Part shown: piece after piece, positions 2,443 to 55,181 of the stretch
Numbering within the stretch: the first letter of the stretch is position 1
Layout: each line of letters starts with the position of its first letter
NCBI GenBank assembly: GCA_045653825.1
Contig: JAZOMI010000049.1
Location: forward strand, 1-58,716
Source: Candidatus Aphodosoma sp.
Lineage (GTDB): Bacteria > Bacteroidota > Bacteroidia > Bacteroidales > Paludibacteraceae
Length of the DNA stretch: 58,716 nucleotides
Direction of reading: 5' to 3'
Position numbers and translations under genes: made by a program
The notes under the pieces: model-generated
The model's input: only the letters and a program-made list of their open reading frames with translations
Database searches by the model: none
What the model was told of the DNA's origin: nothing

Positions 2443-3693
2443 TTAATCTTCGAATTCTGCTTTCAACACAGCCAATACCTCATCGATAGTCTCTTCTTCG
2501 AGGTCTGAACGTTGAATCAACTCTTCACGAGTGAGCGACAACACGTTTTTAGCTGTATCGCAACCGATACCTTTCAATACATCAATAATCCAGCTATCGA
2601 TTTCATCGCTAAATTCATCAAGGTAAATATCTTCTTCATCCACTTCAACGTCGTTACGGAATACATCGATTGTATAACCTGTAAGCATTGTAGCCAATTT
2701 GATGTTGTTACCGTTTTTACCGATAGCGAGCGAAATCTCTTCTGGGCGAAGATATACGTTTGCTTTTTTGTTTTCTTCGTCAAGCTCAATAGTTTGCACT
2801 TTCGCTGGGCTCAATGCGCGAGCGATATAAAGGCTTGGATTTGCTGTATAGTTGATAACGTCGATATTTTCGTTGCGCAATTCACGCACAATACCATGAA
2901 TACGAGCACCTTTCATACCCACACATGCTCCTACTGGGTCAATACGGTCGTCGAACGACTCAACAGCCACTTTCGCACGCTCACCAGGAATACGTACCAC
3001 CTTCTTGATAGTAATCAAACCGTCGTGAATTTCAGGCACCTCTTGTTCGATAAGACGTTCCAAGAACAAAGGTGAAGTACGCGAAAGATAGATTTTTGGA
3101 TTATTATTTTTATTATCTACACGAAGCACAACCGCACGAATAGGTTCGCCTTTACGATAGAAATCATTAGGAATTTGCTCTTGTTTTGGAAGAAGCATTT
3201 CATTTTTATCCTCATCCAAAATAAGCACCTCTTTCTTCCACACTTGATAAACATCGCCAGTCACCACTTGACCAATAATATCAGCATATCTCTCATAGAG
3301 AGCCTCTTTTTGAAGTTCGAGAATACGAGATGCCAAAGTTTGACGAAGATTGAGAACGGCACGACGTCCAAAACTCAAAAACTCTACTTTATCCACAACC
3401 TCTTCGCCCACTTCATAGTCTTCATCTATCTCTTGAGCTGCACTAAGTGCAATCTCCATGCTTTCATTTTCCAATTCATCGTCCTCAACGATAGTACGTG
3501 TACGAAGAATTTCGCAGTCACCTGTCTCAGGATTGATAATCACATCATAGTTCTCATCTGTTCCATACATCTTAGCAATCACACTACGGAACGAATCTTC
3601 CAAAATACTGATCAATGTAGAACGATCAATCGCCTTCAAATCTTTGAACTCCGAAAAGGTTTCAATAAGATTTACTTTCTCTTTTTTAGCCAT
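2443..3693 (-). CDS. nusA: transcription termination/antitermination factor NusA
   Basis: 416 aa ORF with the typical NusA N-terminus (LIETFSEFKDLKAIDRSTLISILEDSFRSVIAKMYG), S1/KH region, and position between rimP and infB. Confidence 0.95.
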   Translation of the reverse strand: MAKKEKVNLIETFSEFKDLKAIDRSTLISILEDSFRSVIAKMYGTDENYDVIINPETGDCEILRTRTIVEDDELENESMEIALSAAQEIDEDYEVGEEVVDKVEFLSFGRRAVLNLRQTLASRILELQKEALYERYADIIGQVVTGDVYQVWKKEVLILDEDKNEMLLPKQEQIPNDFYRKGEPIRAVVLRVDNKNNNPKIYLSRTSPLFLERLIEQEVPEIHDGLITIKKVVRIPGERAKVAVESFDDRIDPVGACVGMKGARIHGIVRELRNENIDVINYTANPSLYIARALSPAKVQTIELDEENKKANVYLRPEEISLAIGKNGNNIKLATMLTGYTIDVFRNDVEVDEEDIYLDEFSDEIDSWIIDVLKGIGCDTAKNVLSLTREELIQRSDLEEETIDEVLAVLKAEFED

Positions 3694-3773
3694 TTTTTCA
3701 AGTTGAAAATTGAAAATTGAAAGTTGAAAGTTAATACCTACGGCAAAATTTCAAATTTCAAATTTCAAATTAA
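3694..3773. repeat. intergenic heptamer-word array (TGAAAAT/TGAAAGT then AAATTTC words)
   Basis: Period-7 tandem repeats. The two halves are near reverse complements around a short unique centre. Confidence 0.8.
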
Positions 3774-13466: not shown

Positions 13467-13889
13467 TGCACAATGCATAATGCACAATTATTAACCCCCT
13501 CCCCCTTTGGATAAGACAGTGAAGAGGCTGCATGAACTGAAGGTCGCACAAGATAAATAGACAGAATGAGGTCTAATGAAATCGTATGTTGCACAGGATA
13601 AATGTAGGGAATGAGCCTACAACGGAGGTTGCACATAGGCAATGCCTATTGTAGCGGACAAATCGCCAACTCGCCCTGTGTTCACGGTCTGATAGTCTGG
13701 GACTCGCCTTGTGTACTGCGTTGGAATCTGGGAACTCGCCCGAAGGGAGGATTTTTTTAACAACACCGAGATAAAGCTGACAGAATGAGGTCGGCACACT
13801 TTGACTTTAGAAATTGATTGTGGAATTTGGCACTCGCCTCGGTGTTTTTTTTGATGACAATTTAAACAACAATTAAACAATATTTAATT

Positions 13890-19273: not shown

Positions 19274-19412
19274 ACAATGCACAATTCATAATGCACAATG
19301 CACAATTGAGAACCTAAGGTCTTTGAGCCTTTGGAGATAAAATTAAGAATTAACTCTTAACTCTAACCTCTAACCATTAACCTCTAATCTCTAACTTCTC
19401 AACTTTCAATTT

Positions 19413-29598: not shown

Positions 29599-29671
29599 AG
29601 CGGGTTGGAGCAGAGGTCAGCTCGCGGGGTTCATTCCCCCGAGGTCGGTGGTTCGAATCCACCACCCGCTA
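29599..29671 (+). tRNA. prophage-encoded tRNA with CAU anticodon (Met/Ile2-type) and an unusual U at position 37
   Basis: Hand-folded cloverleaf. Acceptor AGCGGGT/ACCCGCT, D arm GAGC-AGAGGTCA-GCTC, anticodon arm CGGGG-TTCATTC-CCCCG, variable AGGTC, T arm GGTGG-TTCGAAT-CCACC, discriminator A. Confidence 0.75.
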
Positions 29672-34094: not shown

Positions 34095-34257
34095 ATTAAG
34101 GAATAAGGAACAGGGAGCAGAGAGCAGAGAGCAATGCACAATGCATAATTAAGAACCGAAGGTCTTTGAGCCTTTGGCGATAAAATTGAGAATTCTCACT
34201 CCTCATTCCTCATTCCTAATTCCTAACTAACTTCTAACCTTTCAACTTTCAACTATT

Positions 34258-34692: not shown

Positions 34693-34838
34693 TATTAAAG
34701 AACAAGGTGCAGGGAATAGGGAGCAGAGAGCAATGCACAATGCAGAATTAAGAACCGAAGGTCTTTGAGCCTTTGGCGATAAAATTAAGAATTCTCACTC
34801 CTCATTCCTCATTCCTAACTAACCCTAACCTCTCAATT

Positions 34839-38217: not shown

Positions 38218-38367
38218 ACGCTATTTAAATCACGTTTAATCATGATATTCCTCCCCTGTCTTAGGGGAACCGACGCTCGAAGCAAGAGCAGAAGGCAAGC
38301 TCGCTTGCATTATGCCTTGCAAGGAGGAGGAAGACAAAGTCAAAGTACCCACAGGACGGAGGGGTTT

Positions 38368-46814: not shown

Positions 46815-46989
46815 AATAAATAAAATTGAAAGTTGAAAGTTGAGAATTGAGAATTGAGAATTGAGAATTGAGAACCGAAGGTCTTTGAGCCTTTGGCGAT
46901 AAAATTGAAAATTGATAATTGAAAATTGATAATAAAATATTTAATTTCTAACTCCTAACTCCTAACTCCTAACTCCTAACTCCTCACTC
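46815..46989. repeat. composite intergenic unit: heptamer-word arrays flanking a hairpin word
   Basis: TGAAAGT and GAGAATT words, then GAACCGAAGGTCTTTGAGCCTTTGGCGATAAAATT, then TGAAAAT/TGATAAT words, then 5 x CTCCTAA words. Confidence 0.9.
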
Positions 46990-48943: not shown

Positions 48944-49435
48944 CTATTTTCTTACTTTTTCGAGCACAAACACCAACAAAATTGTTATCAATGAACTAAC
49001 CAAGGTTTTGAGAAGAATAATACCAAAATATTGAAAAGAAAAAGCTTCTAATAAAAACAAAGACAGATGATGAATAAACACCATTAACACAATATATTTC
49101 ACATAATTTCCACCCATTGTACGAAAACGAGGCATCACCTTATCCAATTCCTCTTGAGTCGAAACTATACTAAATATATATGGCCGCAAAAAAGCAATCA
49201 AAGTTGTTGCCATCGCATGAATACCCCATGTATTAGAAAAAGCATCTATAACTAAACCGAGGGAAAAACCTATAAAAATCAACGAAATACGATTTGTATG
49301 TATTGGTAATGTAATTATGAGATAAACATACAAAAAAGGATTAATAACACCAGCTATCTCTATATTGTTAAACAACAAAACTTGCAACAACACCAATCCA
49401 ATAAACCATGACAAAAATTCTATCGCATTTTTCAT
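48944..49435 (-). CDS. mreD: rod shape-determining protein MreD
   Basis: 163 aa polytopic membrane protein immediately downstream of mreC, with a 4-nt overlap. Confidence 0.75.
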   Translation of the reverse strand: MKNAIEFLSWFIGLVLLQVLLFNNIEIAGVINPFLYVYLIITLPIHTNRISLIFIGFSLGLVIDAFSNTWGIHAMATTLIAFLRPYIFSIVSTQEELDKVMPRFRTMGGNYVKYIVLMVFIHHLSLFLLEAFSFQYFGIILLKTLVSSLITILLVFVLEKVRK

Positions 49436-50283
49436 TTTTCTAACGATTTTTGAAGATTCAACAACTCATTCTGATTTTCAAAAGCAAACACTGTCACATA
49501 CGTCAACGACTGAAAATCAACAGCTAGAGCAATATCTATATCACAATACATCGTATTTTCTACAATCGTAGCCTTATCAACAACACCTATCATCATACCT
49601 TCAGGAAATATTGCAGAAAAACCACTTGTCACAATCGTATCGCCAGCCACAACATTTACATGATTTGGTATTTCATATAATTTAGCTTTCAACGGACTCT
49701 TTCCATTCCATTTTACAGAACCTAACTGATTATTACCCTTTATCTTTGCACTTATCACCTGCTCTGGATTTATAATTGGCAACACTACAGAATAATTTTC
49801 ACTCACTCGTTGCACAACTCCCACAACACCCTGCGGAGCAAATACCCCCATATCCTCTTCCACTCCTTGCGCACTTCCCTTGTCGATAATTATATAGTTC
49901 TGCATATCATACACACTATTATAAACCACCTTCGCCGACAAATAATTATCACCACACTGCACCTCAACACTATCTACAATCTCTAATCTGTTATCTGTAA
50001 TCTGTAATCTGTTATCTGTAATCTGTAATCTATAATTCGCTATCTCTTTGTACAATCGAGCATTCTCCTCTGCTAAATACTTATTCGCCTCTGCCAATCC
50101 AAAATAATCTGTTACCGAATTAGTAATTCCATACACCCATGCCGTCAAAGTTGTCGCATAACGAAATGCCACCGAACGTTGCAAATCATTTTTATTCACG
50201 ACAAGCCCAAGTGCCAACATCTCCAACACCACGAAGATAATGACAGCCAAATATTTATAAAAAAACTCTAATATTTTATTCAT
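49432..50283 (-). CDS. mreC: rod shape-determining protein MreC
   Basis: Start taken at MNKILEFFYKY (50283). TM helix, coiled coil, and a conserved C-terminal core (GDTIVTSGFSAIFPEGMMIGVV). Confidence 0.85.
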   Translation of the reverse strand: MNKILEFFYKYLAVIIFVVLEMLALGLVVNKNDLQRSVAFRYATTLTAWVYGITNSVTDYFGLAEANKYLAEENARLYKEIANYRLQITDNRLQITDNRLEIVDSVEVQCGDNYLSAKVVYNSVYDMQNYIIIDKGSAQGVEEDMGVFAPQGVVGVVQRVSENYSVVLPIINPEQVISAKIKGNNQLGSVKWNGKSPLKAKLYEIPNHVNVVAGDTIVTSGFSAIFPEGMMIGVVDKATIVENTMYCDIDIALAVDFQSLTYVTVFAFENQNELLNLQKSLEK

Positions 50284-50420
50284 CCTTCTATCCCCAAAAA
50301 AAGACAAAATAACACAATAACATAAATTATTTCCGCCCATTAAGCCTACAAAGCCTATTAAACCTCGATAATAAAAGTTATGTTATTCTGTTATTCTGCC
50401 TTCAAAAAACATATTATTTC

Positions 50421-53126: not shown

Positions 53127-54143
53127 TTAAAATAATGTTTGTTCTAAATCTGTTCGTGTACGCCCAAGATGCTTATATGCCAAGTCCGTCACCTCACGTC
53201 CTCGAGGAGTCCTTTTTATGAAACCCTCTTTAATCAAAAATGGCTCATACACCTCCTCAATCGTACCCGCATCCTCGCTCATCGCTGTCGCTATCGTAGT
53301 CAAACCCACAGGACCACCCTTGAATTTATCAATCATCGTCAACAATATCTTATTGTCGATTTCATCCAAACCATAGCGGTCGATATTCAACGCTTCAAGC
53401 GCATAACAAGCAATCGTGCGGTCAATTCTACCGCTACCCTTCACTTGCGCAAAGTCACGCACACGACGCAACAAAGCATTCGCTATACGAGGCGTCCCCC
53501 TACTCCTACGCGCAATCTCCACTGCTGCCTCTCTCACAATAGGCACCTGCATAATCGCCGCCGAACGATTGATAATATTCACCAACACCTCGTCATCGTA
53601 ATACTCAAAGTGGCAATTTATACCAAAACGCGCCCTCAACGGAGCAGTCAAAAGTCCACTACGCGTAGTAGCCCCAATCAACGTAAAAGGCTCTAAATCA
53701 ATCTGTACCGACCTTGCCGAAGGACCCTTATCAATCATAATATCAATACGATAGTCCTCCATTGCCGAATACAAATACTCCTCTACCACAGGGCTTAAAC
53801 GATGAATTTCGTCAATAAACAACACATCGTTTCTCTCCAACGACGTCAACAAACCAGCCAAATCACCTGGTTTATCAAGCACAGGACCCGAAGTCAACTT
53901 AAAGCCAACTCCCAATTCATTTGCAATAATATTGCTCAACGTAGTCTTACCAAGTCCCGGAGGTCCATGAAGTAAAGTGTGGTCAAGACTCTCGCCACGC
54001 ATACGCGCCGCCTGAACAAAGATGCTAAGATTCTCAACCACTTTGTCTTGTCCCGCAAAATCGTCAAACGACAACGGACGCAACGCCTTATCCAAATCAC
54101 CCTCAGCCTCTCGCTTCGGATTATGTATATCAAAATTATTCAT
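53127..54143 (-). CDS. ruvB: Holliday junction branch migration helicase RuvB
   Basis: 338 aa with [12 protein letters not shown], Walker [10 protein letters not shown] and LFIDEIHRL. Confidence 0.95.
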
Positions 54144-54178
54144 AATTCATAATTAAAACAATTCCTCATTCCTAATTC

Positions 54179-54931
54179 CTAACTCCTCATTGTATGAAAT
54201 ATATTCTCTATCGACCCATATTTCGCCACAAGCGCATCCTTCTCGCCCTGCTCAATCACATTACCCTTATTGATAACTATTACATCGTCGCATACTTGCT
54301 CCACCTCTTGCATAATATGAGTAGAAAATATCACCAATCTATCACGCCCCAAATCCTTAATCAACTGACGAATTTCTATCAACTGATTAGGGTCAAGACC
54401 TGTAGTAGGCTCATCGAGTATCAACACTTTCGGATTATGAATGATAGCCGCTGCAATACCCACTCTCTGACGATACCCCTTCGACAACTGCTTAATCAAC
54501 TTATGAGACTCACTCGTCAACCCCGTCCGCTCAATCACCTCCTCCACAACTTCTTTTTTCGCTAACTGTGCATTGTGCATTTTTCGCCAAGGCTCAAGAC
54601 CTTTGGTTGTGCATTGTGCATTATATATCCCTGCCACAAAGTCCAAATATTCACGCACATACATATCCAAATACAACGGATTGTGTTCTGGCAAATATCC
54701 CACCAATCTCTTAGTATCCACATCATCCACCGCCACTCTCTTGCCATCAATCAACACTTCTCCCTCATCGGCAGCAATATAACCCGTAACAATCTTCATC
54801 AACGTAGATTTACCCGCCCCATTCGGACCCAATAAACCCACAATGCGCCCAGCACCAAACTCCTGACATATAGAGTTCAACACCCTCTGCGCATCATAAC
54901 TTTTCGATATATTCTTTATTTCTAACAACAT
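54179..54931 (-). CDS. ABC transporter ATP-binding protein (GldA-like) carrying a ~19-codon repeat-derived insertion
   Basis: 250 aa with Walker A GPNGAGKST, signature LSKGYRQR and Walker B VLILDEPT. The extra segment NAQCTTKGLEPWRKMHNAQ is encoded by intergenic-type words (54566-54622). Confidence 0.85.
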   Translation of the reverse strand: MLLEIKNISKSYDAQRVLNSICQEFGAGRIVGLLGPNGAGKSTLMKIVTGYIAADEGEVLIDGKRVAVDDVDTKRLVGYLPEHNPLYLDMYVREYLDFVAGIYNAQCTTKGLEPWRKMHNAQLAKKEVVEEVIERTGLTSESHKLIKQLSKGYRQRVGIAAAIIHNPKVLILDEPTTGLDPNQLIEIRQLIKDLGRDRLVIFSTHIMQEVEQVCDDVIVINKGNVIEQGEKDALVAKYGSIENIFHTMRS

Positions 54932-55181
54932 AATCTAATAACATCTATAATACCCTACATTACATTAACATTGTACATCAAAATACTATTAACCTAATAT
55001 TGTCCCCCTGTCTTAGGGGGACGAGCCCAATGGGCGGAAGGGGTCAAAAAATTAATAATAATTGAAACGCAAAAATACAAAAAAATTATGAATTCAACAC
55101 TAAAAAAATATAGTTATTTTCACTCAAAAAAAATAATTGTGCATTGTGCATTGTGCATTTTTTAGTAACTTTACGATCCGT

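Follow-up and report, generated by a model that had tools for sequence, protein, structure and literature searches.

How DNA of the kind that fills intergenic spacers comes to be read as part of an enzyme is the question raised by a 57-nt segment (54566-54622, minus strand) of contig JAZOMI010000049.1 from Candidatus Aphodosoma sp. The whole stretch of DNA that was analyzed, 58,716 nt long, is called the window below. The segment lies within the gene of a GldA-like ABC-2-type transporter ATPase (ATP-binding cassette, ABC; 250 aa; 54179..54931, minus strand), which was identified from the open reading frame (ORF) call, a profile match, a model fold and the ratio of nonsynonymous to synonymous substitution rates (dN/dS) in the sequences flanking the insert. 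A first-pass annotation, made from the letters alone, had described the segment as an intergenic repeat unit inserted in frame. We consider it very probable that the 57 nt represent a nested, in-frame insertion of the repeats from which this lineage builds its spacers, placed where a functional ABC ATPase gene encodes a loop.

Composition of the insert and alleles at its site

Read from the window on the coding strand (54622->54566), the segment is AATGCACAATGCACAA-CCAAAGGTCTTGAGCCTTGGCGAAA-AATGCACAATGCACAG, that is, AATGCAC words around a hairpin word as the first-pass annotation had it, with the layout (AATGCAC)2AA, a 25-nt hairpin CCAAAGGTCTTGAGCCTTGGCGAAA and (AATGCAC)2. The left part of the heptamer array, AATGCAC AATGCAC AA (54607..54622, minus strand), is translated as NAQCT. 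The short form of a miniature hairpin repeat (54582..54606, minus strand), which adds 27 nt together with a duplicated AA, is translated as TKGLEPWRK, and the right part of the array, AATGCAC AATGCAC AG (54566..54581, minus strand), as MHNAQ. The translation of the ORF agreed with the earlier statement that frame is kept and no stop occurs: the 57 nt encode the 19 aa NAQCTTKGLEPWRKMHNAQ with zero stops. With up to two mismatches, AATGCACAATGCACA was found 29 times in the window, where 0.33 occurrences were expected.

The short hairpin had an RNA fold energy of -6.0 kcal/mol. The gene segment carrying the insert folded no better than shuffled sequence (z = +1.26), which rules out a structured-RNA role for the gene copy. 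The sole gathering-level match in the Rfam scan was a tRNA and no family matched the repeats; at the permissive level only chance matches were obtained (MIR408, E = 0.13; RT-3, 15.8 bits against a threshold of 40.5 bits). A protein-database search, in which one candidate only was compared, gave no match to the duplicated insert peptide.

The 120 closest homologues ranged from 234 to 277 aa, and most of this variation was located at the insert site, the remainder being small differences at the N- and C-termini. At this single site the homologues fell into eight classes. Class A is empty (GLKGVARRETVEG), class B carries (AATGCAC)4 (NAQCTMHNAQ), and class C carries a B-type array followed by a decayed second array (F[RMI]SK[KR]xMI[KQ]). 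The window allele belongs to class D, which is B with the hairpin, and class E is C with the hairpin. Class F has a short array and a second palindromic repeat, here termed module 2 (LTPSARWARPPKTGGQ...), class G has the full array and module 2, and class H (277 aa) is G with the hairpin. The length of the array thus differs between alleles (~1.3 vs 4.3 units).

DNA from 15 loci was compared, and all hairpin-bearing alleles contained an identical 25-mer at a fixed position of the array, on four different backgrounds. In L081 (class B), the nearest relative, no hairpin breaks up the (AATGCAC)4AA, and the hot spot differs from that of the window by exactly 27 nt and one substitution. The presence or absence that the first-pass annotation had proposed to look for among strains is therefore seen among close relatives at exactly the insert site. 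One species-level backbone, with 5' parts 98-100% identical, bears classes C, E, F, G and H. Independent assemblies from ENA, Logan and NCBI agreed in the hot-spot alleles that they gave (P0003 with 14 member sequences, P0009 with 24). Birth of the array in situ by slippage was ruled out, because the empty alleles contain no AATGCAC-like sequence there from which an array could have grown.

Among three lineages the 25-mer showed 0 differences, while the flanking coding DNA differed by 13-14% (third positions 26-29%, synonymous divergence dS 0.55-0.68). At the third-position rate, the neutral chance of an identical 25-mer is ~2-5 x 10^-4 per pair. Identity of the 25-mer despite diverged flanks indicates that the hairpin either arrived recently in each lineage or was homogenised.

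An 'empty' member (L090; ENA ERZ27227516 k141_541407, 3001-3708) was found to be an interspecies recombinant with a crossover near the hot spot. Its 5' part matched one Aphodosoma species at 98-99% identity, whereas its 3' part matched a second species at 93%. Whole hot-spot alleles recombine between lineages.

The alleles show that a 30-nt (AATGCAC)4AA array first took the place of 12 nt (GLKG) in the loop that joins two helices of the helical subdomain, and that the 25-nt hairpin then entered this array after its second unit, with a gain of exactly 27 nt. As relatives show, module 2 and the decayed second array can also adjoin the hairpin-bearing array. Homologous recombination would then shuffle whole hot-spot alleles between strains and species. 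The ribosome would read straight through the insert, placing 19 additional residues in a tolerant loop, and versions that break the gene would be removed by selection.

Family, fold and selection of the host protein

The ABC ATPase scored 321.6 bits against the GldA profile TIGR03522, below the cut-off of 402.6 bits, and covered profile positions 1-221 of 301. The C-terminal third of the profile is missing. The protein falls outside the GldA equivalog, so that of the earlier assignment only the name GldA-like stands. PF00005 was found in homologues of the window protein.

The stretch from A100 to T136 comprises 35 aa in the window protein and only 16-21 aa in 67 diverse homologues (43-61% identity). 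The orthologues from Minthenecus (61% identity) and Flavobacteriia have a short segment as well. The lineage-specific insertion of ~19 aa that had been anticipated from the nucleotide pattern is thus borne out by alignment, and a homologous segment in distant orthologues, which would have pointed to ancestral protein sequence, was found in none of the homologues compared. The inserted segment is not ancestral and is confined to a genus-level group.

On alignment to solved ABC domains in the PDB, the gaps coincided exactly with the insert, which falls in the ..F(Y)A.LKG.. turn following the helical subdomain's first helix. An AlphaFold model based on 36 near-identical sequences reached a pLDDT of 56 and was discarded; after addition of 67 diverse representatives the pLDDT was 93.7. 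Low confidence was limited to about residues 101-125 (ten-residue block means of 69 and 60), where the chain protrudes from the helical subdomain between its helices 92-107 and 114-135. The model matched ABC nucleotide-binding domains, namely 1VPL (TM scores 0.87/0.91) and LptB. In ABC domains the helical subdomain has a peripheral, structurally diverse part that is remote from Walker A/B and the signature motif, and we take the insert site of the window protein to lie in that part. The insert is predicted to form a solvent-exposed and structurally tolerant surface loop, which was also the expectation of the first reading.

The dN/dS of the flanks was 0.09-0.14 in the insert-bearing alleles and the same in the empty alleles. 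The gene is not decaying; its flanks remain under purifying selection, and it is still functional. The inserted peptide itself is most likely a neutral passenger sequence.

The same repeats in spacers and in other genes

The hairpin core AAGGTCTTTGAGCCTTTGG occurred four times exactly in spacers of the window (19316, 34159, 34758 and 46878), where 0.01 occurrences were expected. All four belong to 28-nt copies on the plus strand, and each is flanked by period-7 arrays. The first (19313..19340) lies in a Mu-like prophage between AATGCAC/AATTGAG and AATTAAG heptamers, the second (34156..34183) in the middle of a spacer whose predicted fold is a long imperfect hairpin, the third at 34755..34782, and the fourth (46875..46902) in an AATTGAG array of the spacer that separates rodA from the PBP2 gene. 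The spacer around the second copy (34095-34257) is an extended imperfect palindrome with a minimum free energy of -38.7 kcal/mol (z = -2.84), in which purine-rich heptamers on the left pair with CT-rich complements on the right around the central hairpin.

The gene copy is the 25-nt short form and has three single T's fewer than this 28-nt long form; the spacer copies of the window are a sister variant of the gene copy and not identical to it. The exact short form was detected in spacers of relatives, for example in L001 (4826-4852), L100, L107, L122 and L141. The earlier statement that the gene contains the same composite as the spacers therefore holds for the repeat family within the window and for the exact short form in the relatives, and fails for the window's own spacer copies, all of the long form. 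An origin of the short form by three deletions after insertion was ruled out because the exact short form circulates in spacers. The two forms are three separate single-T deletions apart, yet both add a multiple of three, and most copies lie in spacers, where frame should be irrelevant.

A scan of metagenome contigs with the hairpin core gave 89 stretches, mostly from one assembly. After removal of chance hits in GC-rich DNA and addition of the other loci examined, 81 distinct copies were obtained, mostly located between ORFs and in both orientations, and nearly all inside a period-7 array with the same unit on either side. In the 18 long copies with clear two-sided arrays, in silico deletion of exactly 30 nt restored the lag-7 phase (6.2 of 7 matches, against ~2 for other lengths); for 14 short copies the best phase was reached with 27 nt (modulo 7). 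The sequence at the junctions is ..AA|CC(G/A)AAGG..GGCGA(T/A)AA|AA... The long form, with an identical core, was present in at least six array units (AATTGAG, AGTTGAG, AATGAGG, AGTGAGG, AAGTTGA and AATTAAG) that have only the GAA|..|AA junction in common. The orientation of spacer copies relative to the neighbouring genes was weakly biased (17 same/same vs 9 opposite/opposite, 26:19 overall), which argues against a role as directional terminators.

A TolC-like gene (L159) also contains the composite of the ABC gene, read in the identical frame (Y-NAQCATKGLEPWRKMHNAQ-F), between its two OEP repeats. In the same loop, TolC-like homologues carry AATGCAC arrays with and without the short hairpin, reverse AATTGAG arrays (NSQFSTL...) with and without the reversed long hairpin (IAKGSKTFG), and other short repeats, in many array lengths. 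At the DNA level, L159 exceeds L181, which has the array only, by exactly 27 nt, and L182, with the long form reversed, exceeds L183, which has the reverse array only, by exactly 30 nt. Arrays precede hairpins, and each hairpin lengthens its array by 27 or 30 nt at one fixed kind of junction. These clean differences in two genes, together with the phase restored by in silico excision, support the first-pass suggestion that the spacer unit is, or was, mobile.

Further in-frame composites of hairpin and array were detected in DapB, MurF, EPSP synthase, RsmB/F, CinA, PcrB, a GT2 glycosyltransferase and an MnmD-like methyltransferase. The DapB_C match in DapB (L094) covers 151 residues for a profile of 121 positions. 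MurF (L132) contains three inserts, one of which is the second open frame of the same composite (CTMHNAQPAVLSLGEKCT). In MurF (L132), EPSP synthase (L119), DapB (L094), CinA (L106) and RsmB/F (L093), all on related metagenome contigs, one to three in-frame composites each were observed, in both orientations and several frames, and CinA has an additional, different palindrome-derived peptide, KDAIYCVSTWAETSDCISAS.

In the window itself, an in-frame (ACAGATT)8 array (49969-50036, minus strand) within mreC (49432..50340) is translated as NYRLQITDNRLQITDNRLEIVDSV. In MreC, this stretch separates the N-terminal coiled coil from the barrel domain (Pfam match at residues 138-285). Its peptide RLQITDN recurs in CinA and GT2 ORFs of related contigs.

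The reading frames of these repeats are largely open: the AATGCAC array is free of stops in 6 of 6 frames, the short hairpin in 5 of 6 and the long hairpin in 4 of 6, and the additions of 27 and 30 nt are both multiples of three. Such added lengths and the near-absence of stops argue for read-through by the ribosome. Once a heptamer array exceeds 21 nt, all three frames of a strand contain an identical set of seven codons, so that the strand is either wholly open or wholly closed. AATTGAG and AATGAGG arrays are open only in reverse, and only that orientation was seen in ORFs; AATGCAC arrays are open on both strands.

Module 2 is a two-hairpin palindromic repeat (TTTTTGACCCCTTCCGCCCATTGGGCTCGTCCCCCTAAGACAGGGGGACAAT; GACCCCCTCCGCC..GGGCTCGTCCCCCTAAGACAGGGGGAC), which in the window is located in the 5' spacer of the ABC gene (54998..55050, minus strand). 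In relatives it was found in frame inside the ABC gene (L006, L007, L083, L088 and L089) and inside a Wzx-like gene (L001, 5150-5197; L085, 5293-5340; L088, 5240-5287). The Wzx-like gene, which lies two genes downstream, is without module 2 in the window, L081, L002, L005, L006 and L007. In these two different genes the in-gene copies of relatives are always read as LTPSA..ARPPKTGGQ, and their presence varies within species. Module 2 resembles a wider superfamily with the layout ACCCCTCCG - small stem-loop - CTCCCCT..AGGGGAG, detected in L095, L112, L122, L130, L131, L137, L165, L166 and others, and in the window at about 38314-38366 (minus strand) and at 13488-13520 (plus strand). Its first stem shows compensatory pairs (GCCC/GGGC, GCCT/AGGC, GCTC/GAGC, GTCC/GGAC, GGTC/GACC and CCC/GGG), and its second stem is preceded by CGTC or CCTC, which recalls CGTC-tagged repetitive extragenic palindromic sequences (REPs).

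The genomes nearest to the window were metagenome-assembled genomes of Candidatus Aphodosoma and other Paludibacteraceae from animal guts. The window encodes NusA, a NusB-like protein, the Mu-like prophage, rodA, the PBP2 gene, mreD, mreC, mreB, the Wzx-like gene, ruvB and the ABC gene, and most of its spacers are filled by period-7 arrays. An (AATGCAC)3 array (55138..55159, minus strand) lies in the spacer upstream of the ABC gene, and heptamer arrays (54138..54191, minus strand) fill the spacer between the ABC gene and ruvB. All 35 nt of this spacer belong to heptamer arrays. An AATGAGG-type array takes in the final three codons of the ABC gene and its stop, and an (AATTATG)2 array contains the ATG of ruvB. 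In keeping with this, ABC homologues differ in their C-terminal tails (HTMRS, YTMRNEE and YSMRNEELGMSNE). The Mu-like prophage (~13000-45300) encodes a MuB-like AAA_22 protein, Mu F, a Mu portal and a tape measure protein, and contains a tRNA (29599-29671). Its spacers carry the same heptamer arrays as the host chromosome and three hairpin copies.

Competing explanations and comparison with known systems

In the explanation that we prefer, nested in-frame insertion, the hairpin would be a non-autonomous mobile unit that targets the A-rich position of period-7 arrays and is probably moved by a host function. Several points weigh against it. Alleles were drawn from protein-based searches and intact ORFs, so broken or out-of-frame versions would escape detection. 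The arrival of the array was not a clean insertion, since 12 nt were replaced. The ends of the element and any target duplication are fixed only within 0-2 nt (0-2 A's), as there is a run of A at either junction. The short form is restricted to AATGCAC- or CTCACGG-type arrays and invariably has AAATGCA on its right, which homology-dependent copying would explain as readily as target preference. Among the 20 window ORFs that were scanned, no mobilising enzyme was found: there were Mu-phage functions only, and neither a REP-associated tyrosine transposase (RAYT) nor an IS200-like gene. Translation of the 19-aa insert is itself a deduction from sequence.

The main rival dispenses with transposition. 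According to it, the hairpin and its flanking heptamers were copied from array to array by ectopic gene conversion or template switching, with the heptamers serving as homology arms. The restriction of the short form just described agrees with this, as does a unit of ~63 nt that the ABC and TolC genes have in common, TAT(AATGCAC)2AA-hairpin-(AATGCAY)(AATGCAC)AATTT. Recombination across species is documented in the ABC gene (L090), and identity of the 25-mer across diverged lineages is as expected under concerted evolution. However, the in-gene homology arms measure only ~16 nt, and the short-form spacer copies occupy varied positions of their arrays (1+3 and 2+2). Homology-guided copying explains the tie between the short form and AATGCAC and does not explain the spread of the long form, with its identical core, over at least six unlike array units. 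We regard it as a real possibility, though a rather doubtful one.

A second rival takes the in-gene heptamer array for a contingency switch, in which gain or loss of one unit would toggle the transporter. The model is neuO of E. coli K1, where a long 5' tandem heptanucleotide array acts as an on/off switch and is translated as a 7-residue periodic peptide when in frame. The Aphodosoma arrays are likewise translated 7-nt tandem repeats in a coding region, their unit is not a multiple of three, and array length differs among alleles of the ABC gene and in the TolC loop. The neuO gene is phage-encoded and phase-variable (PMC13001214). In contrast to neuO, the arrays described here are short, internal and present in many genes and spacers. 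In the ABC gene they have only 2+2 or 4 units, a size at which slippage is slow, and every observed allele is in frame, with no off-state seen among the intact alleles, the only ones that could be retrieved. The same arrays occur in ordinary spacers and in the cytoplasmic housekeeping enzymes DapB, MurF and EPSP synthase, where switching makes little sense, and the flank dN/dS of ~0.1 indicates constant selection. Phase variation is therefore unlikely.

Still less probable is that the insert is left untranslated, by ribosomal bypassing or removal from the mRNA, in the manner of the 50-nt gap of T4 gene 60 or the mitochondrial 'byp' elements of Magnusiomyces. The hairpin does lie between identical direct repeats (AATGCACAATGCACA on each side), which would supply matching take-off and landing codons. 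However, the in-gene copies in all genes have lengths that are multiples of three and are free of stops in the frame used, and stop-bearing strands or frames were never seen inside ORFs; bypassing would need no such filter. The gene segment also lacks a fold better than that of shuffled sequence. Finally, ancestral protein sequence or an assembly artefact can be regarded as refuted, no support having been found for either, since neither the 67 diverse homologues nor any orthologue from outside the genus-level group has the segment, identical DNA occurs in dispersed spacer repeats, and independent assemblies from three sources gave the same alleles.

The nested insertion has partial counterparts elsewhere. 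Small dispersed repeats (SDRs) of cyanobacteria are said to be hairpin mini-elements of 21-27 nt that sit in tandem heptamer repeats and in each other, their mobility reportedly inferred from presence and absence. In the size class of the hairpin, in nesting within heptamer arrays and in presence/absence polymorphism, the Aphodosoma units match SDR4-6 and the short tandemly repeated repetitive (STRR) sequences, as far as these are reportedly defined. The hosts differ (cyanobacteria vs Bacteroidota), as do the sequences, and homology to the families SDR1-8 and STRR1-3 of heterocystous cyanobacteria is unlikely. In addition, the Aphodosoma units show a clean multi-state allele series inside genes, and both of their variants add a multiple of three.

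Rickettsia palindromic elements (RPEs) are dispersed palindromic repeats found in frame in many unrelated housekeeping genes, where they are read through as an extra peptide compatible with the fold, and also in spacers (PMC10969869; PMC3733652). The likeness consists in a palindromic repeat in frame in Aphodosoma ORFs without disruption, with the ORF intact, a flank dN/dS of ~0.1 and the hairpin retained. RPEs measure ~100-150 bp, form the families RPE-1 to RPE-10 and belong to an obligate intracellular alphaproteobacterium, whereas the units here measure 25-28 nt and ~50 nt and belong to gut Bacteroidales. They are also nested in 7-nt tandem arrays that are themselves translated. The parallel with RPEs drawn in the first-pass annotation thus holds for the way the repeat works, and size and taxon set the Aphodosoma units apart from the RPEs themselves.

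REPs are palindromes of 20-40 bp, mostly extragenic; some lie wholly within ORFs, their termini sometimes supply stop codons, and functional constraint is not evident (Di Nocera et al., 2013; PMC3733652). The Aphodosoma hairpin is likewise an imperfect palindrome of 20-40 bp, in high copy number (81 copies) and mainly extragenic. Unlike REPs and the doublets that they form (REPINs), the hairpin, CCGAAGGTCTTTGAGCCTTTGGCGATAA and its complement, has no GTAG or CGTC tag and occurs in heptamer arrays and not in inverted dimers, and no RAYT was seen in the window. Module 2 does have CGTC directly 5' of its main stem (CGTCCCCCT..AGGGGGAC), but this tag overlaps the stem. Miniature inverted-repeat transposable elements are defined by a length of 70-300 bp and terminal inverted repeats of 15-30 bp (PMC3733652), and a hairpin of 25-28 nt with a stem of 6-7 bp falls short of both. 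No literature was found on repeats in Aphodosoma.

Taken at their widest, the data may indicate that in Aphodosoma and related Paludibacteraceae the period-7 arrays and the hairpins of 25-30 nt nested in them make up a single modular repeat system that is active and host-wide, a view that we put forward tentatively and hold to be somewhat improbable in its full extent. Such a system would build nearly every spacer, including those of the Mu-like prophage, and colonise loops of the ABC ATPase, TolC, MurF, DapB, EPSP synthase and MreC. The hairpins would then be among the smallest mobile elements, integrating specifically into heptamer arrays by a new mechanism, and their lengths in multiples of three and few stops would be adaptations for survival in genes.

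For practical use, the tight association of hairpins and heptamers offers a handle for tracing the mobilising activity, and the hypervariable hot spot may serve in strain typing. In annotation and alignment, peptides with a period of seven residues and the strings TKGLEPWRK, PKVLSLGEK and IAKGSKTFG should be read as repeat-derived and not as functional motifs. The findings extend in-frame invasion by repeats of the RPE, REP and SDR type to free-living gut Bacteroidota, and what is unusual here is how clean the allele series is and how widely coding sequences seem to have been invaded in this lineage of gut Bacteroidales. The alleles constitute a stepwise record of non-coding repeat DNA turning into protein, from the empty site to the array, the array with hairpin and the added modules, in one enzyme loop, and this record is replicated in a second gene.

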